Shown here one piece after another: positions 22,538-33,985 of a DNA stretch of 64,000 nucleotides. The DNA comes from Gemmatimonadales bacterium (GTDB taxonomy: Bacteria; Gemmatimonadota; Gemmatimonadetes; Gemmatimonadales; GWC2-71-9). Position 1 is the stretch's first letter, and each line of letters begins with the position of its first letter. A program made the translations under genes and the position numbers. The stretch lies in the NCBI GenBank assembly GCA_037189525.1, contig JBBCJC010000011.1:1-64000 (forward strand), given 5' to 3'. The notes below the pieces were generated by a model. The model saw only the letters and a program-made list of their open reading frames with translations, made no database searches and was not told the DNA's origin.

Positions 22538-23983
22538 CTAGGGAGATCGGGGAATGGCCGCGCCGTGGCAGGCGGCGCACATCTCCGGGTTGCGGCGGCG
22601 GAGGCGTTCGGCGTCGAAACCGGGGCCGTGCGGGTTGAACCGGAAGCCGCGCCCGATGGCCGCGTGGCAGGCGGTGCAGTCGCGCTCGGTGTGACAGGAA
22701 ACGCACGATTCGAGCGATTGCCGGGCCGCCTGGCCATGGCCCAGGATGAACGAGGCCCTGCCGTCGTGGAAACGGGCGCTGCCGAGCGAGCGGCTGGCGC
22801 CGAGTCCGGCCTGGGCGTGGCAACTGGCGCAGAACTGCTGGGTGTTGTGGCAGTCGCTGCAACTGGTCTGCCGGGCAAACGCGGCGCTCGGGTGGCTGGT
22901 CAGGAACCCGGCCGGATGGTAGTTGCCTCCGGACGGCTGCCCCGGATCGGGCCGGTGGCAGGCAAGGCAATCCTCGCGGACGTGACAACTGCTGCAACTC
23001 CGCGGCGCGGCCGTGGCGGTGCCCGCATGGTTCTCCCGGAACTCCACGGTGTGCGAGGCTGGCGGACGCCGGTCGAGCAGGGCGCCGGCGGCCCGGCCCG
23101 GCGCCGGCTGGTGCAATGCCGTTACCGCGCGGGGAGCCGGAGCGACGTGGCAGGCGGCGCAGCTGGGCTGGGCGTGGCACGTGGCGCAGCTGGCGGGATT
23201 GCGTTGGGCCTGGCGACCGTGCGCCGTCGCGAAGTTCCGGGCCGCGTGCGACGGCGGAGCGACGAATTCCGCGCGATGAACCAGCGACCGCTCGTCCGGC
23301 CTGAGCGCCTGGATCGCGGCGACCTCGGGGGCGTTGACGTGGCAGTTGAGGCAGAAATTCTGCGCATGGCAGGTCGCGCAGCTGGCGGAAACGGTCGGCT
23401 GCCCGCCCGGGGTTCTCACCGAAGCGAGCTTGGCATGACCGCTGAGCCCGAACTCGGGGGCCTGGTGAGAGGGCGGAGCGGGAAACCCGCGGATCTGGCC
23501 CGCCGGGAGCGCGACGGCCTCCGCCAGAGGAAGGTGACAAGTGGCGCACTGCTGATTGACCACGGTGAGATGCTCGGCGCCGGGCTGATGGCAGTCGATG
23601 CATTGAGTCACCACGTTGCGGTGGACCTCGCTCCGCAGGCCGTCAGTGGTGTGGCACTGGGCGCAGCCGACCGAGTCGGCGGTGGCGCTCGAGTGCCGGT
23701 CGTGCGCAAAGCGCAGGTTGGACGGAGGCGGTGCCAGAGGGGCCGTCCAGCTGACCACCGGCGCGACTTCGCCGTCATGGCATGCTGCGCACTTATCGCG
23801 GTCGGGCCAGACGGCAGCGCCGAGCTCCGCGGCGCCGGCATGACAGGTCGTGCAGGCCAGCGGAAACAGCTTGCCGTGGACCGCGTGGTCGAAGCCCCGC
23901 CGGGACGAGGCGGCCCGGACGGCTGCCGCGGCAAGGATCAGCGCCAGGCCGGCGGCCACCAGTCGAAAGGTGCGCGCTCTCAT
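22538..23983 (-). CDS. Periplasmic 16-heme cytochrome c
   Basis: Signal peptide MRARTFRLVAAGLALILAAAAVRA; 16 CXXCH counted, many as tight pairs. Confidence 0.92.
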   Translation of the reverse strand: MRARTFRLVAAGLALILAAAAVRAASSRRGFDHAVHGKLFPLACTTCHAGAAELGAAVWPDRDKCAACHDGEVAPVVSWTAPLAPPPSNLRFAHDRHSSATADSVGCAQCHTTDGLRSEVHRNVVTQCIDCHQPGAEHLTVVNQQCATCHLPLAEAVALPAGQIRGFPAPPSHQAPEFGLSGHAKLASVRTPGGQPTVSASCATCHAQNFCLNCHVNAPEVAAIQALRPDERSLVHRAEFVAPPSHAARNFATAHGRQAQRNPASCATCHAQPSCAACHVAPAPRAVTALHQPAPGRAAGALLDRRPPASHTVEFRENHAGTATAAPRSCSSCHVREDCLACHRPDPGQPSGGNYHPAGFLTSHPSAAFARQTSCSDCHNTQQFCASCHAQAGLGASRSLGSARFHDGRASFILGHGQAARQSLESCVSCHTERDCTACHAAIGRGFRFNPHGPGFDAERLRRRNPEMCAACHGAAIPRSP

Positions 23984-24008: not shown

Positions 24009-25502
24009 TCATCGGCGCTCTCCGCGAGGTACTGCGTGAGGCAGGGGGAGCCGATCGGCATTGGAGCCGAAAAGAACCGTCACCCGGGCCGACACGCGGA
24101 GCTGATCCCAGTCGAGCGCGCGCGCGTCGAGCCGTTGCCGCTGTTCGTTGTATCGGGCGGTGGTGATCCCCACCCGCCATCGGTCATTGGGCCGGTACTC
24201 CGCATCCGCGCCGAATCCCAGAAGCTCGGCGTCGTCATAGCGTAGTTCCAGCGGGCGCTTGCTGCGGGTGCCGTGCGCACTGAGCCAGAGCCGGTCGGTC
24301 GCGACCCAGGTGACCCGGCCGTCGAACCCCCGCGACGCTGCCCCCGGCCCGAACTCGGCCCGATAGCCTGCATCGACCGTCCAGCGGTCGGCGGGGCTCC
24401 AGGTCACGCCCGACTCGAATCGCCAGCCGCGATCCTCTACCGTAATACCAGGGGTGAAGGTTTCCGTGTCGTCGAAGCGGAATCGCTCGCCGCGGGCCCG
24501 AAGCGTCACCCGAGCCGTGGGACGGACCGTGCCGGACAGGTGCCAGGCGTGATGAGCCACGGGGCTGAAGGCGCCCCAGATGGTCCACAGGTCGAAGAAC
24601 GGCCGGTAGCGGCGGACTCCGCCGCTCACGCTGAAGCGCGGGTCGATCCAGCTGACCGTCGCGTCGGCGCTGCCTACCTGGCCAAAGGCGAGATCGTATT
24701 CGCCACCCGTCGTGAGGCTGACGCGGCGGTGGGGCCGAATGGCGATGGCGGCGGCGGCCCGCTCGGACACGAAGTAGTCGACGGCGGGATCCAACTCCCT
24801 CCGGTACTCGACTCGCGCATTGGCCACGGCGTGGGTCCAGCCCAGCTCGAGGCCCGCAACTACCTGTCGGTCGCGGGGTTGAAAGTCGTCGAGCGGATTG
24901 AGGGCCGGATCGGTTACCGGAAGCATGGCGCCCCGCGCCAGGCCCCACCCCGCGTATCCTCCCGCTTCGAGGCCGGAACCCCGATGCCGGACGAGCACGC
25001 GGCCTCCGTCGAGCCCATAGGCTCCCAGTCGCCCTAACAGCAATTGACGTCCCGCCCGGGCGATCAGCTGGTTCCGTTGGTATTCGAGATATCCCTCGAC
25101 CAGCTGAAGGGCGGGTTCGGTGCCGGGCCAGCTGGCCTCGCCCAGGTCGGTGGCCGAGCGGACGTTGGCGCGGGCGGTCAGTCCGGCCACACCGAAGCCC
25201 CAGACGGTCAGGTCGGCCTGGGTCACCCAGGGCATTCCGCGCAACTCGGCGCCAGGTGCGAAGTAGGAGCAGGTCTGCTCGCCGCACAGCGCGGCGTAGC
25301 CATCCGGCGTGAGGAATCCGCCCCCCGTCTGCGGAATGGCTTGGGCGCGCGGGAGGGTGCCGGCCAGAACCCCGCGCCAGGCCACGCTCTGCAGCCGGCT
25401 GTCGAGCCTGACGCGATACCCCTGCGCGGCGGCGGTCGTGGCCGTAGCAGTCGAGAGGCCCAGCGCAGCAAGCACAATCAGGCCGAGACGTGGGACGATC
25501 AT
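24009..25502 (-). CDS. Predicted outer-membrane beta-barrel (porin) of a porin-cytochrome cluster
   Basis: Signal peptide; alternating aromatic/Gly beta-strand pattern (LVEGYLEY, ARAGRQ, GLDGG, LRVSARVTVLF); ATGA-coupled to a cytochrome gene. Confidence 0.8.
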   Translation of the reverse strand: MIVPRLGLIVLAALGLSTATATTAAAQGYRVRLDSRLQSVAWRGVLAGTLPRAQAIPQTGGGFLTPDGYAALCGEQTCSYFAPGAELRGMPWVTQADLTVWGFGVAGLTARANVRSATDLGEASWPGTEPALQLVEGYLEYQRNQLIARAGRQLLLGRLGAYGLDGGRVLVRHRGSGLEAGGYAGWGLARGAMLPVTDPALNPLDDFQPRDRQVVAGLELGWTHAVANARVEYRRELDPAVDYFVSERAAAAIAIRPHRRVSLTTGGEYDLAFGQVGSADATVSWIDPRFSVSGGVRRYRPFFDLWTIWGAFSPVAHHAWHLSGTVRPTARVTLRARGERFRFDDTETFTPGITVEDRGWRFESGVTWSPADRWTVDAGYRAEFGPGAASRGFDGRVTWVATDRLWLSAHGTRSKRPLELRYDDAELLGFGADAEYRPNDRWRVGITTARYNEQRQRLDARALDWDQLRVSARVTVLFGSNADRLPLPHAVPRGERR

Positions 25503-27553
25503 GAGCGCCCCGGTCCGGTCAGCCGGCGCCGCAGTTCGGCCGGCGACTCGAGGAAATGGCAGGTGGCGCACTCGCGGCTCGGATAATGATCCTTCGCTTG
25601 CTCGGCATGGCAGGTCGCGCAGAACAACCGGTCGGGAGTAAACCGGGCCACGGTCGACGCGGTGTGACAGGCATCGCAGCGCTGGTGCGACGCCGCGAGG
25701 TCGTCCGCGTGCGCGGTGCGGATCTCGGGGCCGGTGTGACAGGCAGCACAGCTTCGGCCCGCGGCGTGGTGATCGCTATGACAATCGGCGCAGCGGCGGA
25801 CGCCTTCCGCCGGCGCCAGCGACACCGGCTGGGTATGGCAGGTGACGCAACGGAGTTCGGTGTGTGTCTGGTGCGCAAAACCGACGCTCCTGACCCGTGG
25901 CTCCCGGTCCTTGACCCCGATCGGTACCGCCAGCGCGCGGATCGCCGCCAGGTCGCCGGGGCGGTGGCACGCGGCGCAGTTGCTCGATCGTGGCGCCTGA
26001 TGGTGACAGATCTGACATCCTCGCGGCGGGACGAAGGTCAGTGTTGCAGAACTCGCTCCGGTGGTATGACAGGTGATGCAGGCAAGGCGGGTATGTCGGG
26101 CATGGGGAAAGGAGTCGACGGACGCAATCGATGGTTCGGCTGCTGCCGTTGGCGGGTCCGGCGCCGGGAGTTCCGGCGGCGGGGTGTCTCCTTTCCCGGG
26201 AAGCTCGATCTCTGCGGCTGGAGCAGGCGCCGCGGCCGGCCGCGGCGGCCAGGCTACGGGACCGGGCGGTCGTGCTCCGTCGAAGTGCCCGACACTCGGT
26301 GGAACCGGTTGCTCGGGATCACGTGCCGAAGTCCGCAGCGCCCGCGTGGTGTCGAACGGCAGGGGCGGACGGAGACGGAGGGTGCCGAAGCGCGCGGTCA
26401 CGCTGGTATGGCATGCCACGCAATCGCTGGCGTCGACCCGCGCGGCGTGCTGATTGTGGCAGACCAGGCACTGCTGGCCAACCTGACCGTGAGCCCGCCC
26501 GGTATGGAACGGTACGGTCTGCCAATCCGCATGGCACTGACTGCAGGTCTTGCCTGCCTCGGCCGGGGTGGTCTGGGTGTGCGGGTTGTGGCAGGTCCCG
26601 CAGGTGCCGTTGTGCGGATCGCGCGCGGGGTCGAAGTCTCCGGCGACCTGTCGCATCGCGTGACAGGAGAAACACTGCCGGCTGCCGGGCTGCATCGCGT
26701 CGGCCGCGTCCTCGCGCGTGGCCAGCCGCGGCACCTCGGCGGTGAACTGGTGGCACTGGTTGCAGTGCAGCGTGGACTGGGTGGCCATCCGGCCCAGCTT
26801 GATGTCGAGATTGGCGTGGCAGCCCGCGCTGCCGCAGGTCTCGTTGGCTGGGATGAACGCGTGCACTTCCTTCCCATGGCAGGTCACGCAGAGCACCTTT
26901 TCGAGCGCGCTCGAATCCGATTCCAGATGGACCCGATGCCCCGCGGTCTGCGCGATCCGGGTCCAGGCTTCGGACTGATCCTTGGCATGGCACGATTCGC
27001 AGCGCGCGTTAGGCACCGGCGCGTGGGGCGGGATTTCCACCGGCTTGTTGGCCACCCAGAGCACCAGCTGGCGGGTGCTGGCGTAGAGCGATTGCTGATG
27101 GCAGTCGTGACACTGCAGAGCGCTGTGCTTGCCCGCGTCGGATCCGAACTTGTTCCAGGGCCCTTCCATGATGTGGCAGCCGACGCAAAAGGCGTTGTCG
27201 TGCTGCATGAAGTTCCAACTGACCTGGCCGCCGCGGAACAGGAGCGCCAGCACCAATACGGCGCCCGTGCTCATGGCGATTTTGACCCCGCGGTCCCGGG
27301 TCGTGAGCCAGTGGCCGATGGCGCTGCGTCGTCGCCAGAGGAACAGCGCGAGCCAGATGCCGACCGTGAGGCCCACCACGATCCCAACCACCCACGCCCA
27401 GGTCGGCGCGTTGAAAATGGCGCGGAGCACGGTCATGACGCCGCCGGGGATCGGCGGAGGCTCCGCAGGAACGCCCTCGCGGAATCGGTGGAAACTGGCC
27501 GAGTCGGGAATCTGCGGAGCGAGCGCGGCCAGGCCCGGAAGGAAGAGTGCCAT
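25499..27553 (-). CDS. Membrane-anchored multiheme cytochrome c (19 CXXCH + 1 CX4CH) with NapC/NrfH-like N-terminal domain
   Basis: Two TM helices, then FCVGCHIM...H...CHDCH; a Pro/Ala-rich linker separates 11-heme and 9-heme blocks. An upstream start at 27673 is possible. Confidence 0.9.
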   Translation of the reverse strand: MALFLPGLAALAPQIPDSASFHRFREGVPAEPPPIPGGVMTVLRAIFNAPTWAWVVGIVVGLTVGIWLALFLWRRRSAIGHWLTTRDRGVKIAMSTGAVLVLALLFRGGQVSWNFMQHDNAFCVGCHIMEGPWNKFGSDAGKHSALQCHDCHQQSLYASTRQLVLWVANKPVEIPPHAPVPNARCESCHAKDQSEAWTRIAQTAGHRVHLESDSSALEKVLCVTCHGKEVHAFIPANETCGSAGCHANLDIKLGRMATQSTLHCNQCHQFTAEVPRLATREDAADAMQPGSRQCFSCHAMRQVAGDFDPARDPHNGTCGTCHNPHTQTTPAEAGKTCSQCHADWQTVPFHTGRAHGQVGQQCLVCHNQHAARVDASDCVACHTSVTARFGTLRLRPPLPFDTTRALRTSARDPEQPVPPSVGHFDGARPPGPVAWPPRPAAAPAPAAEIELPGKGDTPPPELPAPDPPTAAAEPSIASVDSFPHARHTRLACITCHTTGASSATLTFVPPRGCQICHHQAPRSSNCAACHRPGDLAAIRALAVPIGVKDREPRVRSVGFAHQTHTELRCVTCHTQPVSLAPAEGVRRCADCHSDHHAAGRSCAACHTGPEIRTAHADDLAASHQRCDACHTASTVARFTPDRLFCATCHAEQAKDHYPSRECATCHFLESPAELRRRLTGPGRS

Positions 27554-27676: not shown

Positions 27677-29242
27677 TTACCGGGAGGCGCCGGCGACCGT
27701 GATCTCATGCCCAGGTATCGGCGTACTCGAGCGCCGGAGGCCGTGCGCGTATTTCCCGCCCGTCGGACCGTCCAGAATGGCCTGGATCGCGGCCGACGGG
27801 GCCGGAAGCGCGTAGGTCGCCTGCACCTCGTTGATCGAAGCAATCAGCAGCGCTTCGCAGAGGAACGGGTTGTGGATGCCCTTCGAATTGTCGGCCGTCG
27901 ACTGGCCGTACTCGCCGCACATCCGGGCGTTGAACTCGGCGCCTTCGGCCGGGGTGATCTGATTGTCCGTCGTGCTCCACGCCTGCGGGTAGAGCTGCCG
28001 CACTCTGGGCAGCAAGCCGGCGTCGGTCGGGGCCGCCTGCATCGAACCGTTGCCGTCGGTGTCGGTCCAGAGCTGGTTGGTGAGCAGCCGCATCCGGGAC
28101 CGGACGGTGGTGAATGCCGCAGCCGCCACCGATGCGTTGGCGTGGCAACCCGAGGCGGTGCAGGTGGCCCAGGAACGCGCGGTCGGGGTGTAGCCGCAGT
28201 TGTCGCTGGCGGTCGGGCGACCCTGCTCGTCGAGGCAGGGGATCGGCCGCATCAGATGGCCGGTGGCCTGGAAGGCCTGGCCGCCCTGCTGGTCGGGCGC
28301 GGTGACGCGGTTCAGGTGGCATCCGGCGCAGAGCGTCGGGTTCGCCTCGGTGGCGTGCGAACTGAAAATCCGATCCTCGGCATAGATGAAGCCAGCCGGC
28401 CGATAGCCCGCGGTGCCGAGCAGGAGCGAACCCTGCGGAGCATGGGGCGACGAACTGGTGTTGGTCGGCGCGTCGTAGCGGAGGTGGCATTTCATGCAGA
28501 GGTTCTGTTCCACGTCCGCCGTGTTGATCGGGAAGCGAAGTTGGGACGGATTCTCCGAGCCGTGCGGATCGTGGCAGGTCGCGCAGACGGCGACCGGCTG
28601 ATACGCCGTGGCTTCGCCCTTCTCCATGTAGTTGTTGGTGACGCCCCAGCGGGCCAGCGCCTGCCGGCTCTCGTGACATCCGGCGCAGGACGCGTTGGCG
28701 GTGCGGGACGGGTTCACCACCGCGTGCTGGGACTGGCGCCACTCCTCGACGTAGGGATGGTGGGTGTCGCTGTGACACTCTGCGCAGGTACCGTTGCCCG
28801 TCATTCCGATGCGGGCGAGCGGGCGCACGACCTGTCCCTGGCCGATACCGCGGACGTGGTCGAGTCCGGGTCCGTGGCAGCTTTCACACTGGACATCGTG
28901 GTAAACGGCATCGCGGGTGGTGTTGAAGCCGGCCGCTTCGCTCACCATGTTGCCGCGCTCGGTGACCGCATGGCAACTGGCGCATTGATTCGGCGCGGTC
29001 GACGGCAGGTCCGCAAAGGTGGTGGCATGCGCCGTCGTCCGCCAGCGGCTCTGCACGTCGGCGTGGCAATTACCGCAGGTGGTCTGTTTGTTTTCCGCAG
29101 AGTAGTAGCCCAGGAAGCCGAGTGCGGCTGCGGGCGGTTCATTGAAGGGATCGCGATCGCGATAGACGACTTTGTCCGCTGCGCAGCCTGCGAGCAGGGC
29201 AGCGAGCGGAAGCGTCCGAAGTGCCAACGCAACGATGCGCAT
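27677..29242 (-). CDS. Multiheme cytochrome c lipoprotein (8 CXXCH + 1 CX4CH)
   Basis: Lipobox LLAGC; VQCESCHGPG, CATCHDPH, CTASGCH, C-terminal GIHNP helix. Confidence 0.92.
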   Translation of the reverse strand: MRIVALALRTLPLAALLAGCAADKVVYRDRDPFNEPPAAALGFLGYYSAENKQTTCGNCHADVQSRWRTTAHATTFADLPSTAPNQCASCHAVTERGNMVSEAAGFNTTRDAVYHDVQCESCHGPGLDHVRGIGQGQVVRPLARIGMTGNGTCAECHSDTHHPYVEEWRQSQHAVVNPSRTANASCAGCHESRQALARWGVTNNYMEKGEATAYQPVAVCATCHDPHGSENPSQLRFPINTADVEQNLCMKCHLRYDAPTNTSSSPHAPQGSLLLGTAGYRPAGFIYAEDRIFSSHATEANPTLCAGCHLNRVTAPDQQGGQAFQATGHLMRPIPCLDEQGRPTASDNCGYTPTARSWATCTASGCHANASVAAAAFTTVRSRMRLLTNQLWTDTDGNGSMQAAPTDAGLLPRVRQLYPQAWSTTDNQITPAEGAEFNARMCGEYGQSTADNSKGIHNPFLCEALLIASINEVQATYALPAPSAAIQAILDGPTGGKYAHGLRRSSTPIPGHEITVAGASR

Positions 29243-29573
29243 GGTTCGGGTTCCCGAGTGAGTACGGTGAAGCGGTTCGGACGATCGTCGCGTTCTGCTT
29301 ACCGTAGTTCTACTCTAGGAGCATCGAGCCCGCTACGCAATGGGGAAACGTTTCTATTTAATAGCAGTTGAGTCGCCTTTGTGACCATGCTGCGCGCTGC
29401 AGGAATTACGAGAGAAAAATTCAGAAATCCACTTCGTCGGATGCAGCGTATTCGTGACGCGGCAAGGCTGATCGACAGGTGCCGATCGTCGAGCGCCGCG
29501 CTAATTTTCTTTGGGTAACGGGTCGGTTATTGCGACCTCGTTGATCGGATTGCTTCAACGGAGTGTGAGCGCG

Positions 29574-30368
29574 ATGACATCGGTTCCTCCCGCATCGTGT
29601 CCTGCGTGCGGCCAACCCGTCGGCGGGCGGTTCTGCGGTTCCTGCGGCGCGGCCGTCACGTGCGGAGCTTGCGGCGCGGCGCTCGGTTCGGGCGTCCGAT
29701 TCTGTGGCAGTTGCGGAGCGGCGGCGGGCGCGATGGCTCCGGCGCGCGCGCGGGGGAGTTGGCGGACGGGTCCGGCGGTCTTCCCGCTCGCCCTTGCCGG
29801 CATCATGGTCGTCGTGGCTCTGGTCGTGTACCTGGTTCGCCGGGACCCGGCGTCGCCCGCCCTCGCTGGTGGAGTCATGGACTTTGCTCCCGGCAGTACC
29901 GAGCCGGCGCCCGCGCTGGACGGACTGTCCGGGCGTGACCGATTCGATACGCTGTACAATCGCGTCATGCGCGCGTCGGAGCGGGGCGACGGCGCCACGG
30001 TGAACCGCTTTGCCCCAGAGGCCCTGCAGGCCTATCGGGAGCTCGAGCAGCCCGACATCGATGCCCGGTACCATGCCGCGATGCTGCGGCTCCACACCGG
30101 TGACCCGGCCGGCGCATTGGCCCTGGCCGACACGATCGGCAGCTTGGAGTCCAGCCACCTCTTCGGTTTCGTGATCCGTGGCACCGTCGCCCGGTTCCGG
30201 GGTGACAGTACTCGGCTCTCGACCGAACAGGCCAGAGTGCTCCAGCATTATGACGCCGAGATGGCGGTGGGGCGGTACGAATACGCCCATCACAAGTTCA
30301 TTCTCGACCAGTTCATCGGGGAGGCGCGGCAGCGGGCGGCGGCGCCGGCCGAACAGCCGGGACGATAG
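29574..30368 (+). CDS. Double zinc-ribbon membrane protein with helical (TPR-like) C-terminal domain
   Basis: CPAC/CGSC/CGAC/CGSC, one TM, helical repeats. Confidence 0.75.
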   Translation: MTSVPPASCPACGQPVGGRFCGSCGAAVTCGACGAALGSGVRFCGSCGAAAGAMAPARARGSWRTGPAVFPLALAGIMVVVALVVYLVRRDPASPALAGGVMDFAPGSTEPAPALDGLSGRDRFDTLYNRVMRASERGDGATVNRFAPEALQAYRELEQPDIDARYHAAMLRLHTGDPAGALALADTIGSLESSHLFGFVIRGTVARFRGDSTRLSTEQARVLQHYDAEMAVGRYEYAHHKFILDQFIGEARQRAAAPAEQPGR

Positions 30369-30395: not shown

Positions 30396-30821
30396 ATGAA
30401 GGCCGGAACCAAATTCATGCTGGGCGCGGCGATCATCGCCGGTGCGACGGCGCTTCTCATCTATACGGGGATCAGTCAGACCGGGGTCTATTTCCTGAGC
30501 CCGTCCGAGCTGCTCGCCAAGGTGGAGGCGGATGCCTCCTTCCACGAGGTGGGACTCAAGGTCGGGGCGAAGGTCGTACCCGGCTCGATCCGGCGCGACG
30601 ATGCCAGCCGGCGGATCGAGTTCAAGGTGGCCGACGCGGGCGGGACCTTTCCCGTCGTCTATGACGGCCTGGTCCCCGACACCTTCACCGACGAGAATGA
30701 CATCGAAGTCATCATGTCGGGCAAGCTCGACCGCAATGGGGTCTTCCAGGCCACCGAAGTGCTCGCGAAGTGCGGGTCCCGATACGAATCGGAGTACTCG
30801 AAACTGGCGCAGGCAAGCTGA
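30396..30821 (+). CDS. ccmE: Cytochrome c maturation heme chaperone CcmE, CxxxY variant
   Basis: N-terminal TM, YFLSPSE, YDGLVPDTF, VLAKCGSRY; GGAGG RBS. Confidence 0.92.
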   Translation: MKAGTKFMLGAAIIAGATALLIYTGISQTGVYFLSPSELLAKVEADASFHEVGLKVGAKVVPGSIRRDDASRRIEFKVADAGGTFPVVYDGLVPDTFTDENDIEVIMSGKLDRNGVFQATEVLAKCGSRYESEYSKLAQAS

Positions 30822-30849
30822 CTTCCGTGCCCCGGAGTAGGCGAAGCTC

Positions 30850-32889
30850 ATGAATCTGCTTGGTCAATTCGCCCTCTGGGCCGCGCTGCTGATTTCGATC
30901 TGGGCCGTCGTGCTCGCATTTTCGGGGCAGACGGTCGAACGCGCCGAGGTGGCCCGCGCGGTTCGCCGGGCTCCGCACGCGGCCTCGCTGGCGGTCTGGA
31001 TCGCCTCGATCGCGCTGTGGAAGGCGCTCTTTGCGCACGACTTCAGCGTCGAATACGTCTACGCGTACACCTCGCGGAACCTCCCCGACTACTACCTCTT
31101 CTCGGCTTTCTGGGCCGGTCAGAAGGGCTCGCTGCTCTTCTGGGCGCTGGTGCTCGGGTCGTTTGCGTCGCTGGCCCAGATCGTCACGCCGCCGCGGTAT
31201 CGTGATCTCCTGCCCACCGTCGCCGGGGTGACCAGCGGGGTTCTCGCCTTTTTCCTTCTGGTGATGCTGGTCGGCGGGGCTAATCCGTTCGGCCAGCTGC
31301 CCTTCGTGCCGCCGGACGGACGCGGCCTCAATCCGCAGTTGCAAAACCCGGGGATGGTGATCCACCCGCCGATGCTCTATCTCGGGTATATCGGCCTCAC
31401 CATTCCGTTTGCGTTTGCCATCGCGGCGCTGTGGCATCGGCGGCTCGACAGCGGCTGGATCCACGCGATTCGCAAATGGTCGCTCGTGTCCTGGCTCTTC
31501 CTCTCGGTCGGCATCACCATCGGTATGTGGTGGGCGTATGTCGAACTCGGGTGGGGCGGCTACTGGGCCTGGGATCCGGTCGAGAATGCGAGCCTGCTGC
31601 CGTGGCTCACGCTGACGGCCTTCCTTCATTCCGTCATGATCCAGGAAAAGCGCGGGATGCTCAAGCGATGGAACGTGGGCCTGGTGATCGGCTCCTTCCT
31701 GCTCAGCATCTTCGGCACCTTCCTGACCCGGTCGGGCGTGATTGCGAGTGTCCACAGCTTCGCGCAGTCGAACGTCGGCTATTTCTTCCTGGCGTTTCTG
31801 GTCGTGGTCGGCGTCCTGTGCTACACCTTGCTGTACACCCGCTGGCCGGCGCTCGAGCCCGAGGCGCAACTCGAATCGCTCGCGAGCCGGGAAGCGGCCT
31901 TTCTGTTCAATAACCTGATCCTGATCGGGATTGCCTTCTCGGTTCTGTGGGGCACCATCTTTCCCGTCCTGTCCGAAGCCGTGCGGGACGTCAAGATTTC
32001 GGTCGGGCCGCCGTTCTTCAATCGCGTCAACGTTCCGCTCGGTCTGATGCTGCTGTTGCTGACGGGGATCGGTCCCTTGATTGCCTGGCGGAAGACGTCG
32101 GTGCCCAATCTGAAGCGGCAGTTCGCGGCGTCGTTAGGCGGCGCGCTGGTGACCGCGGTCGTCCTGCTGGTCGCCGGGATGCGCGACTTCTATGCCCTGA
32201 TTGCGCTGGTCATTGCCGCTTTCGTCCTCGGCACCGTGGTCCAGGAGTTCGTGCGCGGTATCCGGGCCCGCCGGCGCCTCTATGGTGAATCGCTGATCGT
32301 CGCCACCGGTCGCCTGGTAGGCAGGAACCGTCGCCGCTACGGGGGCTACCTGGTGCACGTTGCCATCGTGGTGTACTTCGTGGCGTTCACGGGCGGGGCC
32401 TTCAAAGTCACCCGGGAAGCCACGCTGCGGGTCGGCGAGTCGATGGACATCCGGAGTCCCTTCGGCGCGACCTATCGACTGACCCATCTGGGCGTTTCCC
32501 AGTATGACGCGCTCAACCGCCAGGTCTCGGCCGCTACGCTGGAAGTGCGCCGCGATGGCCAGAGGATCGGGACGGTGGTGTCGGAGAAGCGCCAGCACGT
32601 CGACAGCTTCGGCAATCCGACGTTCCAGCCCTCGACCGAAGTCGGGATCCTGCCCAGCATACGGGAGGACCTCTACGTCGTCTTTGCGGGCACGGTCGAT
32701 TTCACTGAGCGGGCTTCCTTTGCCATCACCCTCAATCCGCTGGTATGGTGGGTCTGGTTCGGTGGCATCCTGCTGGTCGTCGGCGGGCTGATCACGCTTT
32801 GGCCGGGCGGCCCGGGTATGGCACCGCAGGTAACGCGAGTGCGCGCGCCCGAAGCGCTGGAGCCGGCCCCCGAGCCGGTCAACGTATGA
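30850..32889 (+). CDS. ccmF: Heme lyase CcmF
   Basis: WAGQKGSLL, GLNPQLQ, IHPPMLYLGY, WGGYWAWDPVENAS, SVHSF. Confidence 0.96.
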   Translation: MNLLGQFALWAALLISIWAVVLAFSGQTVERAEVARAVRRAPHAASLAVWIASIALWKALFAHDFSVEYVYAYTSRNLPDYYLFSAFWAGQKGSLLFWALVLGSFASLAQIVTPPRYRDLLPTVAGVTSGVLAFFLLVMLVGGANPFGQLPFVPPDGRGLNPQLQNPGMVIHPPMLYLGYIGLTIPFAFAIAALWHRRLDSGWIHAIRKWSLVSWLFLSVGITIGMWWAYVELGWGGYWAWDPVENASLLPWLTLTAFLHSVMIQEKRGMLKRWNVGLVIGSFLLSIFGTFLTRSGVIASVHSFAQSNVGYFFLAFLVVVGVLCYTLLYTRWPALEPEAQLESLASREAAFLFNNLILIGIAFSVLWGTIFPVLSEAVRDVKISVGPPFFNRVNVPLGLMLLLLTGIGPLIAWRKTSVPNLKRQFAASLGGALVTAVVLLVAGMRDFYALIALVIAAFVLGTVVQEFVRGIRARRRLYGESLIVATGRLVGRNRRRYGGYLVHVAIVVYFVAFTGGAFKVTREATLRVGESMDIRSPFGATYRLTHLGVSQYDALNRQVSAATLEVRRDGQRIGTVVSEKRQHVDSFGNPTFQPSTEVGILPSIREDLYVVFAGTVDFTERASFAITLNPLVWWVWFGGILLVVGGLITLWPGGPGMAPQVTRVRAPEALEPAPEPVNV

Positions 32890-33500
32890 CCGGCCCGATC
32901 GATCGCCGTCGCGTTCTCGGTGTGCTGGCGGCCGGCCTGCTGGCCCGGCGCCTCGACGCGCAGCAGGCCGGGCAGCCCGGAGCGGCCGATCCGCTGCCAC
33001 GCCCCGGCGTGGTCGGTGCGCCGCGCCGAGTGGTCGATTCGGTTCAGAATGACCCGCAGATCGTCGCCGTCGAGCGGCGGCTCCGTTGCCCCTGTCCCTG
33101 CGGGCTCGACGTCTTTACTTGCCGGACCACCGATTTCACCTGCACCTATTCGCCGGCTCGGCACGACGAAGTGGTTGCCCTGTTCCGGGAAGGCAAGACC
33201 CCGGAGGAAGTGGTGGCCGCGTTCGTCGACCGGTACGGCGAAGAGGCGCTGATGGCGCCCAAGCCCGAGGGCTTCGGGATCGTCGGATACCTGCTGCCAG
33301 GCGCCGCCATCCTGACCGGCGCCAGCCTGCTCGGCTGGTACATCCTGCGCCGATCCCGGCTGCGTCGAGCCGCTGCCGGTGCGGTGGCGGTTTCGGATGT
33401 CTCACCGGCGCCGGTGCCGGACATCGCAGGCGCCGCCGATCGTGAAACGGCCCAGGATGTAGACCGGCTCCAGCGGGCCCTTCGGGATCTCGAGACCTGA
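32886..33500 (+). CDS. ccmH: CcmH-family cytochrome c biogenesis protein, Cys-rich variant
   Basis: RLRCPCPC..C..C, FVDRYGEEALMAP, C-terminal TM; ATGA overlap with ccmF. Confidence 0.85.
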   Translation: MTGPIDRRRVLGVLAAGLLARRLDAQQAGQPGAADPLPRPGVVGAPRRVVDSVQNDPQIVAVERRLRCPCPCGLDVFTCRTTDFTCTYSPARHDEVVALFREGKTPEEVVAAFVDRYGEEALMAPKPEGFGIVGYLLPGAAILTGASLLGWYILRRSRLRRAAAGAVAVSDVSPAPVPDIAGAADRETAQDVDRLQRALRDLET

Positions 33501-33985
33501 TGCTGGAACTCGCTGCCATCATCGTGCTCGGCCTGGTGCTCATCGGTATGGTGATGACACCGTTGCTCCGCAGGACGCCGGACCCGGACGACCTCGACGA
33601 ACCGTTGCCGCTCGAGGAGACCCGCCAGGGCCAGGCCCTGCTTGCCATCAAAGACCTCGATTTCGATCACGCCACCGGGAAGATCTCGGAGGATGATTAC
33701 CTCGCGTTGAAGGGCCGATTCACTTCCGCGGCACTTGCCGCGCTTCGGGACGAGCCGGCCGATCCCGCCGAGCAGCTGGTTGCGGCGCGGCGGGCGGCGC
33801 TCGACGGAGCCGGGCCGGTCGCGGTGTGTCCCGCCTGTGGCCCTCGGCCCGAATCGGACGCCCGTTTCTGTTCCGATTGCGGCCTCTCGCTCGATACCCC
33901 TACGACCTGCCCGAGCTGCGCGGCTCCGCTGCCGTCGGGAGCCCGTTTCTGTGCCGGTTGCGGGACTCGGGCGGCGGCAGCGTAG
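33500..33985 (+). CDS. CcmI N-terminus-like membrane protein with double zinc ribbon
   Basis: TM, IKDLDFDHATGKISEDDY, CPAC/CSDC/CPSC/CAGC. Confidence 0.75.
   Translation: MLELAAIIVLGLVLIGMVMTPLLRRTPDPDDLDEPLPLEETRQGQALLAIKDLDFDHATGKISEDDYLALKGRFTSAALAALRDEPADPAEQLVAARRAALDGAGPVAVCPACGPRPESDARFCSDCGLSLDTPTTCPSCAAPLPSGARFCAGCGTRAAAA

Follow-up and report, generated by a model that had tools for sequence, protein, structure and literature searches.

Model organisms rely on diffusing carriers (STC/FccA, PpcA) to bring electrons across the periplasm. Whether a quinol dehydrogenase and its carrier may be joined in one polypeptide is the question raised by P0001, the product of a minus-strand gene in a stretch of 64,000 nucleotides (the window) that forms positions 1 to 64,000 of contig JBBCJC010000011.1 of a Gemmatimonadales bacterium (assembly GCA_037189525.1). 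An initial annotation, made from the letters of the DNA, had read P0001 as a NapC/NrfH-type quinol dehydrogenase head fused to a heme wire whose tethered arm spans the periplasm, one polypeptide replacing CymA plus soluble shuttles. The explanation favoured here, with moderate confidence, is that the head oxidises menaquinol and that a tethered nine-heme arm passes the electrons to a 16-heme wire in an outer-membrane barrel for respiratory export. A leashed carrier on a quinol dehydrogenase would make the choice between diffusion and hard wiring addressable in one gene, and the remodelled site of the head bears on whether the NapC/NrfH lysine is truly indispensable. Soils and sediments commonly harbour Gemmatimonadota, which, to our knowledge, are not regarded as electroactive; with a conduit of this type they would be able to trade electrons with their surroundings. 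No description of the P0001 family was found in the literature searched, which lay mostly outside subscription journals (PMC6295460, 10.1101/2022.01.10.475773, PMC10654088, PMC7198977, PMC7399161, PMC5566968, 10.1101/2023.05.03.539133, PMC13264449).

Architecture of P0001

The gene and its parts, all on the minus strand, are:

25499..27553, minus: P0001 gene, encoding a 684-residue, 20-heme predicted inner-membrane cytochrome (open reading frame, heme motifs, homologs)
27218..27403, minus: first transmembrane helix (TM1), basic cytoplasmic loop and second helix (TM2), predicted N-out/C-out (hydropathy)
26858..27217, minus: NrfH-like tetraheme head, residues 113-232 (family profiles, hhalign, alignment)
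27167-27187, 27107-27109 and 27068-27070, minus: head sites, respectively CVGCHIM, His149 in the heme-2 motif and Gln162
26354..26857, minus: hemes 5-11, residues 233-400, including the CX4CH heme 5 (heme motifs)
26579-26674, minus: second NrfH-like element CxxCHxM...H...CxxCHxPH, residues 294-325, hemes 7-8
26117..26332, minus: Pro/Ala-rich variable tether, residues 408-479, 72 residues (alignment, model)
25502..26116, minus: nine-heme c7/c3-like arm, residues 480-684 (family profiles)

P0001 holds 19 CxxCH motifs and one CX4CH site (CGSAGCH, residue 240), which gives 20 heme sites, 11 of them N-terminal and nine C-terminal of the linker. The 11 N-terminal motifs of the initial annotation stand if the CX4CH is counted as a heme site and fall short if CxxCH alone is counted, while its nine distal motifs and its CVGCHIM (residues 123-129) were recovered as described. 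The architecture is not a product of chance, since a search with P0001 returned 1074 homologs at E<=1e-3; the 120 best aligned of these form the family alignment, to which all counts out of 120 refer. The hemes are split 11+9 in 112/120, 11+10 in 7/120 and 11+8 in 1/120, and all 120 proteins carry at least two CxxCHxM motifs.

Two transmembrane helices had been proposed and are borne out by TM1 (about residues 51-74, Kyte-Doolittle peak 2.43) and the weaker TM2 (peak 1.67 at about 88-108, helix placed at about 91-112), for which a hydropathy of at least 1.6 is kept in 117/120 and 119/120 homologs, respectively. The loop between them, with a median of six Lys plus Arg and no Asp or Glu across the 120 homologs, predicts an N-out/C-out topology, and hydropathy and loop charge together predict that P0001 is anchored in the inner membrane, as initially suggested. 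A distant clade of relatives has a single helix, equivalent to TM2. The start at 27553 is supported by conservation of residues 34-50, which begin upstream of Met40; alternative starts (Met40 and an upstream GTG) were rejected on conservation, and a cleavable signal peptide is unlikely, many homologs having few residues ahead of the conserved region. A sigma-70-like promoter was looked for at the operon and none was found, and terminator-like sites there were no more frequent than expected by chance. The full-length AlphaFold2 model, folded without hemes, reaches a predicted template-modelling score (pTM) of 0.39 and is too poor to give wire length or domain packing. Cluster-similarity (atlas) searches, which serve as leads, returned the family's own clusters first, then clusters containing NapC/NirT at 0.86-0.90 and generic c7/c3 clusters.

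Two features of P0001 go beyond the initial annotation: heme 7 carries another invariant CxxCHxM, and the linker is unusually long. Over hemes 7-8 a second match to TIGR03153 is found (E=3.9e-4, C11:26573-26707), and hhalign pairs this element with NrfH at a probability of 93.6. Met300 of heme 7 is invariant (120/120); in the 16-heme family described below, 2 of 941 motifs have a CxxCHxM. As no hydrophobic segment is close to it, heme 7 probably sits within the wire as a Met-ligated heme, and a second quinol site at this position was considered and rejected for the same reason. The conserved free ligands of the N-terminal half are 13 His and Met256, for the ten hemes other than heme 1.

Hemes 11 and 12 of P0001 are 109 residues apart, 72 of which form the variable Pro/Ala stretch, and the linker of roughly 90 residues first described is a fair approximation. 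The variable stretch has a family median of 39 residues and a range of 29-105, which makes the 72 of P0001 unusually long, and it is predicted to be disordered (predicted local distance difference test, pLDDT, below 50 in the AlphaFold2 model). Conserved elements within the linker are PLPFDT..AL(R) (residues 396-407) and GKGD (452-456), both in the stretch 26117-26354 on the minus strand, which are possible docking or processing sites; a GKG motif is found in the tether of 80/120 homologs. Seven distant members combine one transmembrane helix with linkers of 36-87 residues, measured motif to motif (shortest, 36, in L118), and a long tether is therefore not required. Several of these distant linkers resemble, by eye, decayed signal peptides.

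The arm also occurs apart from the head. In three loci it forms a protein of its own, preceded by a lipobox and a low-complexity stalk (86-123 bits; lipoboxes assigned by eye; L126:5578-6459, L127:4116-5075, L128:4439-5281); in each of them a gene for a transmembrane-anchored 9-heme protein is next to it or near, and in L127 the free-standing arm lies between the lipoprotein and barrel genes. In one genome (G158) a free-arm operon and a complete fused gene lie about 25 kb apart. The arm forms the C-terminal end of secreted 14-heme proteins in L120 and L129, and an arm-only reading occupies the operon slot in L130 (L130:6251-6981), where a signal-peptide-like start lies in a different frame; the frame change, near a run of C, is possibly an assembly error. 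These arrangements suggest that the arm is a captured module that was formerly a separate carrier. With this, one polypeptide in place of CymA and soluble shuttles becomes plausible: the genome contains ten open reading frames with at least two CxxCH motifs, of which, outside the operon, those with at least four encode NrfH, NrfA and an ActA-like protein, and hence no separate small soluble multiheme shuttle is encoded.

The other half of that proposal, an arm that spans the periplasm, is overstated, as the arm is too short to do so by itself. Scaled on MtrA, in which ten hemes extend over 80 A (PMC7198977), the arm would measure at most ~7 nm and the 11-heme half ~9 nm. A tether of 72 residues would reach 22-26 nm at most and one of 39 residues 12-14 nm; as coils they would extend ~8 and ~5 nm. 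The periplasm is 15-25 nm wide, the linker is heme-less, and in the family it is usually half as long as in P0001. Since the tether carries neither hemes nor electrons, the arm would have to move to and fro, or dock, to connect heme 11 with its partner, and the head, the arm and the periplasmic hemes of the 16-heme partner could together bridge the periplasm.

Homology and putative quinol site of the head

The NapC/NrfH homology of the head, as initially claimed, is carried by profile comparisons. The P0001 family profile matches the NrfH chain 2j7a_C at E=1.4e-6, and hhalign of the family against 14 canonical Gemmatimonadota NrfH proteins gives a probability of 97.6 over 102 columns that span hemes 1-4, with a gap after heme 2. 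TIGR03153 matches P0001 at E=4.6e-9 (36.5 bits against a cut-off of 134.2), and a PDB sequence search with residues 88-231 alone returned NrfH as its sole match (E=0.014). A transmembrane helix directly precedes the four NrfH-homologous hemes. Structural searches with the low-confidence model gave weak scores: the top two Foldseek rows are NrfH chains, at E values of 0.54-0.65 over 123-125 aligned residues, and VIA pairs the model with 2vr0_F (Z=4.9, root-mean-square deviation 4.3, 123 aligned) and 2j7a_C (Z=4.4, deviation 4.5, 125 aligned). The homology is secure on sequence, yet it lies below the curated family cut-offs. Full-length P0001 has no match to PF03264 at E<=0.01; the cut-off of this family was passed by two of six full-length P0001 homologs tested, and the NrfH of the same genome, used as a control, scores 52.7 bits.

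In print, the residues named for the NrfH quinol site are Met49, Lys82 and Asp89, and the lysine has equivalents in CymA (K91), NapC (K103) and ImcH (K173). ImcH is described as having His/Gln179, with Lys173 matching NrfH Lys82, and replacement of the lysine in Wolinella NrfH blocked nitrite reduction (10.1101/2023.05.03.539133). CXXCHXM had initially been taken to mark the quinol-proximal heme; by itself the motif does not demonstrate quinol oxidation, and the functionally required Lys82 is missing from P0001. What is retained is Met129 of the heme-1 CxxCHxM, at the NrfH Met49 position and invariant in 120/120, and a polar residue at position 162, which aligns with NrfH Asp89 and ImcH Gln179 and is Gln in 111/120 and Glu in 9/120; part of a distant clade has Met here. 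The quinol helix is ~13 residues shorter in P0001 than in NrfH.

More distant relatives of the head were collected in a deep search with residues 88-400, which gave 382 cluster representatives. Of the best 150 of these 382, 83 match the head pattern, and six were dropped (four end before heme 3 and two are the second repeat), leaving 77 distant heads. In these the second residue of the heme-2 motif, position 149 in P0001, is His in 53/77 and Lys in 20/77, that is, basic in 73/77 distant short-helix heads. The equivalent spot holds His or Lys in 22/898 other motifs and in 0/30 heads that retain the lysine. Position 149 aligns with NrfH Asn67, which we take to line the quinol pocket. His149 (or Lys) inside the heme-2 motif may therefore replace the lost lysine as the base. 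As the 77 heads are relatives of P0001, descent accounts for part of the pattern, but the fact that His and Lys interchange suggests that selection favours a side chain that is basic or can act as a ligand. A second candidate for the base is His118, directly N-terminal of heme 1, present in 114/120 homologs.

Proteins that bear short-helix heads contain up to 34 hemes, and the architecture hence reaches beyond the P0001 family; NrfH-like heads of this kind are found on proteins of 30-34 hemes and in 10-12-heme versions (P0197, P0199, P0202, P0214, P0219, P0242, P0243, P0246, P0258). A separate set of proteins of 526-580 residues (L097-L106) has NrfH-like tetraheme heads with Lys and Asp intact, fused to a further domain that is presumably of the formylglycine-generating-enzyme type.

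Operon partners and distribution

P0001 lies in an operon with three further genes, next to a divergent group:

27677..29242, minus: upstream lipoprotein cytochrome, 8 CxxCH and 1 CX4CH, weakly MtrA/DmsE-like (motifs, profile)
24009..25502, minus: signal peptide and predicted 22-strand outer-membrane beta-barrel, no plug domain (model)
22538..23983, minus: secreted 16-heme cytochrome, its C-terminal hemes predicted in the barrel lumen (motifs, complex model)
30396..33500, plus: divergent ccmE, ccmF and ccmH, flanked by two zinc-ribbon genes (family scan)

The start of the barrel gene overlaps the P0001 stop by four bases. A search of species genomes found relatives encoded in 318 of 371 candidate stretches, and the best 80 of the 318 were kept, 76 of them Gemmatimonadota by title. 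Among loci with enough flank, the lipoprotein gene lies upstream of the P0001 homolog in 72/75 and the barrel gene downstream in 71/72, the single miss (L013) having a barrel after all, and the 16-heme gene is present in 65/65. The lipoprotein cytochrome is a probable surface or terminal partner. Membrane-anchored double-zinc-ribbon genes at 29511-30368 and 33500-33985, on the plus strand, flank the ccm genes, and the first is found near the operon in 17/80 loci. One metagenome-assembled genome titled Vicinamibacterales contains two copies of the operon (L020, L038).

The barrel model has a pLDDT of 84 and a pTM of 0.75, and 22 membrane strands were counted. By VIA it resembles large barrels in general (FimD, Z=18.9; MtrB, Z=16.5). 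Its profile gave no match against PDB sequences at E<=10, and PF11854 (MtrB) had no match on the barrel or anywhere in the genome. For the first outer loop (mature residues 14-63) the model predicts a long hairpin in which two Cys, at 47 and 52, are invariant; the lipoprotein cytochrome might dock here. The complex model of barrel and 16-heme cytochrome scores 0.80 against 0.00 for the best control, on a scale whose mark was reached by 116/157 solved and 2/215 mismatched pairs; separate runs share at least 78% of contacts, and the partner has a pLDDT of at least 75. The barrel contacts alternate along the strands in a lumen-like manner and involve partner residues 224-447. The last hemes of the 16-heme protein contact long loops, and hemes 1-7 are accordingly read as periplasmic. 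The 16-heme cytochrome is thus predicted to sit in the barrel lumen, and the model lends support to binding of the two proteins.

The distribution of these genes was surveyed in 201 Gemmatimonadota genomes (E<=2e-99 for P0001, E<=7e-137 for an alternative protein and E<=3e-50 for the barrel). The P0001 family occurs in 66/201 genomes, with some copies cut by contig ends, and the alternative, an NrfH-headed 21-heme protein that retains the lysine (17-21 hemes in the copies inspected), in 29/201. The barrel is found in 90/201, comprising 66/66 genomes with P0001 and 21/29 with the alternative; 87 of the 90 carry one or the other, and one of the remaining three has the P0001 gene in pieces. P0001 and the alternative are found together in 0/201 genomes, where 9.5 would be expected if they were independent. 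Since MtrB-based screens miss this barrel, estimates of iron or humics reducers could be too low.

The head of the alternative has Lys six residues ahead of Gln or Met in 6/6, and its C-terminal domain is homologous to the P0001 arm. In three of six alternative loci inspected, its gene is flanked by those for the lipoprotein and the barrel; in a fourth it lies directly upstream, and in the other two the stretch covered contains no barrel. Of these L122 was the sole locus examined in detail; here the alternative is accompanied by bc-type and FdnI-type cytochromes b, and a Rieske-like gene stands at the end of the operon. This second Gemmatimonadota module (L120-L125, L129, L107-L112; e.g. L122:2920-9860) comprises a bc-type cytochrome b, a transmembrane-anchored 9-heme, a 21-heme and an 11-heme protein and an FdnI-like cytochrome b, and it uses the same barrel and 16-heme genes as the P0001 operon. 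By these gene orders the operon slot is interchangeable between P0001 and the alternative, and P0001 occupies the place that quinone-reactive membrane proteins hold in relatives. That a quinol head and a shuttle have been fused is supported by this exchange together with the separate lipoprotein arms.

Elsewhere the genome encodes MqnA/MqnD-family proteins and three full heme-copper oxidase subunits I; no NiFe hydrogenase was found in this 98%-complete genome. A canonical nrfHA pair lies at C1:743725-745678 (L081:4726-6679, G000), whose NrfA contains five CxxCH motifs but lacks CxxCK, and in whose NrfH the Asp89 position is occupied by His.

Proposed electron route and comparison with known systems

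Under the favoured account, menaquinol would be oxidised at heme 1 of the NrfH-like head, where Gln162 would face the heme as in ImcH and His149 would serve as the substitute base. Electrons would then run through hemes 2-11, away from the membrane, and the arm on its predicted flexible tether would act as a captive shuttle that delivers them to the 16-heme partner at its periplasmic end. From there the 16-heme wire in the 22-strand barrel would pass them to the lipoprotein or to an outside acceptor. With no b cytochrome in the P0001 operon, the head is the only candidate quinone interface there. Export is the likeliest direction.

A number of observations weigh against this account. The Lys82 equivalent is absent, position 156 being I/L/M/V in 120/120 and Lys never occurring at 155, and Lys stands at either expected register in 1/77 distant heads; it is present in 14/14 NrfH and in 6/6 heads of the 21-heme type. 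The spacing of hemes 2 and 3 is 32 residues in 68/77 distant heads, indicating a short helix, compared with 45-46 in 14 NrfH, 39-40 in six alternative heads and 50 in ten other NrfH-like proteins. Both His and Lys are able to ligate heme, and His149 could instead be an iron ligand and close the heme-1 site. The check proposed initially, a PF03264 match over the first four hemes, came out negative: the head alone scores 20.5 bits (E=4.4e-4), below the curated 24.1, with 14-73 of 174 profile positions covered; P0001 also stays under the TIGR03153 equivalog threshold of 134.2 bits and has no adjacent nrfA. A wide fold search was dominated by the transmembrane helix, with NrfH scores tied with those of unrelated helices, and the weak structural scores come from the heme-less model of pTM 0.39. 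The genomes surveyed are kin, and the exclusion count overstates their independence. The barrel complex resembles the solved MtrAB, so that its score may pass partly by likeness. Other quinol oxidants of the genome (an NrfD-family protein, a cytochrome b and NrfHA) could feed the wire.

Some of these points recur in the idea that the head no longer performs quinol chemistry and serves only as an anchored relay fed by alternative complex III or a b-type cytochrome, with His149 (or Lys with Met162) coordinating heme 1. The loss of Lys82, the helix shorter by ~13 residues and the presence of NrfD/ActA-type and cytochrome b genes elsewhere in the genome speak for it, as do the paired states of positions 149 and 162 (His/Gln in 33/77, Lys/Met in 14/77), which look like ligand sets. 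However, the 13 free His and Met256 are already available to ten hemes, so that His149 is not needed as a ligand, Met129 is still invariant, P0001 replaces a module that holds quinone-type b cytochromes, and the operon has no co-occurring donor gene; we regard the relay as unlikely. Electrons might also run inwards, the conduit taking them from Fe(II), reduced humics or partner cells and the head reducing menaquinone, which would be drained by alternative complex III and the heme-copper oxidases. CymA-type proteins have been proposed to be bidirectional (PMC6295460), the three oxidase genes would suit such a route, and the bc-type cytochrome b and Rieske-like gene of the alternative module recall uptake-linked PCC4 clusters (PMC5566968). 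Against this, the closest heads, NrfH and ImcH, work in published accounts as quinol oxidases. Anaerobic respiration through NrfHA is also encoded. Menaquinone is of low potential, and its reduction from Fe(II) would be uphill. Uptake is accordingly judged somewhat less probable still than a relay.

Least probable, and in our view very unlikely, is that P0001 is a rigid wire with the arm docked on the 11-heme half, or an electron store or feed to periplasmic enzymes, whose linker is a degenerate remnant of gene fusion. Linkers as short as 36 residues (L118), the likeness of several distant linkers to decayed signal peptides, and the conserved PLPFDT and GKG, which could be docking elements, would fit such a protein. 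In the model, however, the two halves do not touch with any confidence (pTM 0.39, linker pLDDT <50), the variable stretch ranges over 29-105 residues, free arms are also tethered, by a lipid and a low-complexity stalk, and the barrel is present in all 66 P0001 genomes.

Beyond captive-shuttle export itself, P0001 might be the type of an unrecognised, widespread NrfH-like branch in which the base has moved from the surface helix into the heme-2 motif (C-H/K-x-CH), with wires of up to 34 hemes. In Gemmatimonadota it would have captured a nine-heme carrier, and four genes with 45 hemes would link menaquinol to the surface with no free shuttle. Together with the interchangeable 21-heme alternative, this would equip close to half of the genomes sampled in the phylum (90/201, by the barrel) for extracellular electron transfer; this wider synthesis is offered tentatively, as doubtful in its full extent.

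Among known systems, the PCC3/PCC4 clusters (PMC5566968) and the group-3 clusters (PMC13264449) likewise have one cluster proposed to reach across the whole envelope, with cytochromes of ~20 or more hemes. The quinone interface of PCC3/PCC4 is a five-helix di-heme-b membrane protein, of which none is found among the operon genes of P0001; these have a c-type NrfH-like head instead. The metagenome-assembled genome SAW209, a Gemmatimonadales genome, is listed with a porin cluster in the undecaheme/over-20-heme group and with petB/petC (PMC13264449). Its cluster is probably the 21-heme alternative module, and a Gemmatimonadota porin-cytochrome cluster is thus not wholly unreported.

The head itself shares with NrfH of Desulfovibrio vulgaris (2J7A/2VR0) a transmembrane helix followed by a CxxCHxM heme 1, a His matching H61 and the order of the four hemes, the alignment covering NrfH residues 14-155. 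P0001 differs by an added N-terminal transmembrane helix (in most members), 16 more hemes, the shorter helix, the missing Lys82, Gln for Asp89, His for Asn67 and the lack of an adjacent nrfA. A NapC-like head fused to extra hemes is already known from ImcH of Geobacter sulfurreducens, which, compared by description and not by sequence, also has several transmembrane helices, a predicted distal Gln at heme 1 and a role in electron export. ImcH has three transmembrane helices, a CX3CH first motif and 6-10 hemes (PMC6295460), keeps Lys173 and passes electrons to the soluble PpcA, whereas P0001 combines two helices and CxxCHxM with 20 hemes, lacks the Lys, has its carrier on a tether and shares its operon with a barrel gene, and so falls outside the description of ImcH.

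With a large outer-membrane barrel encoded beside multiheme cytochromes, the locus belongs to the porin-cytochrome systems in the general sense, and it lies outside MtrAB/MtoAB/PioAB as defined by PF11854 and 26 strands. The order of components, from quinol dehydrogenase through periplasmic carrier and a cytochrome that enters the barrel C-terminus first to a lipoprotein cytochrome, would be the same as in Shewanella CymA-STC/FccA-MtrCAB (6R2Q). The barrel has 22 predicted strands rather than 26 and no MtrB sequence match, and the threaded cytochrome has 16 hemes rather than ten. What sets P0001 apart from the Shewanella chain is the joining of dehydrogenase and carrier in one polypeptide, and P0001 is, in sum, a real, conserved and undescribed variant within a known class of protein.

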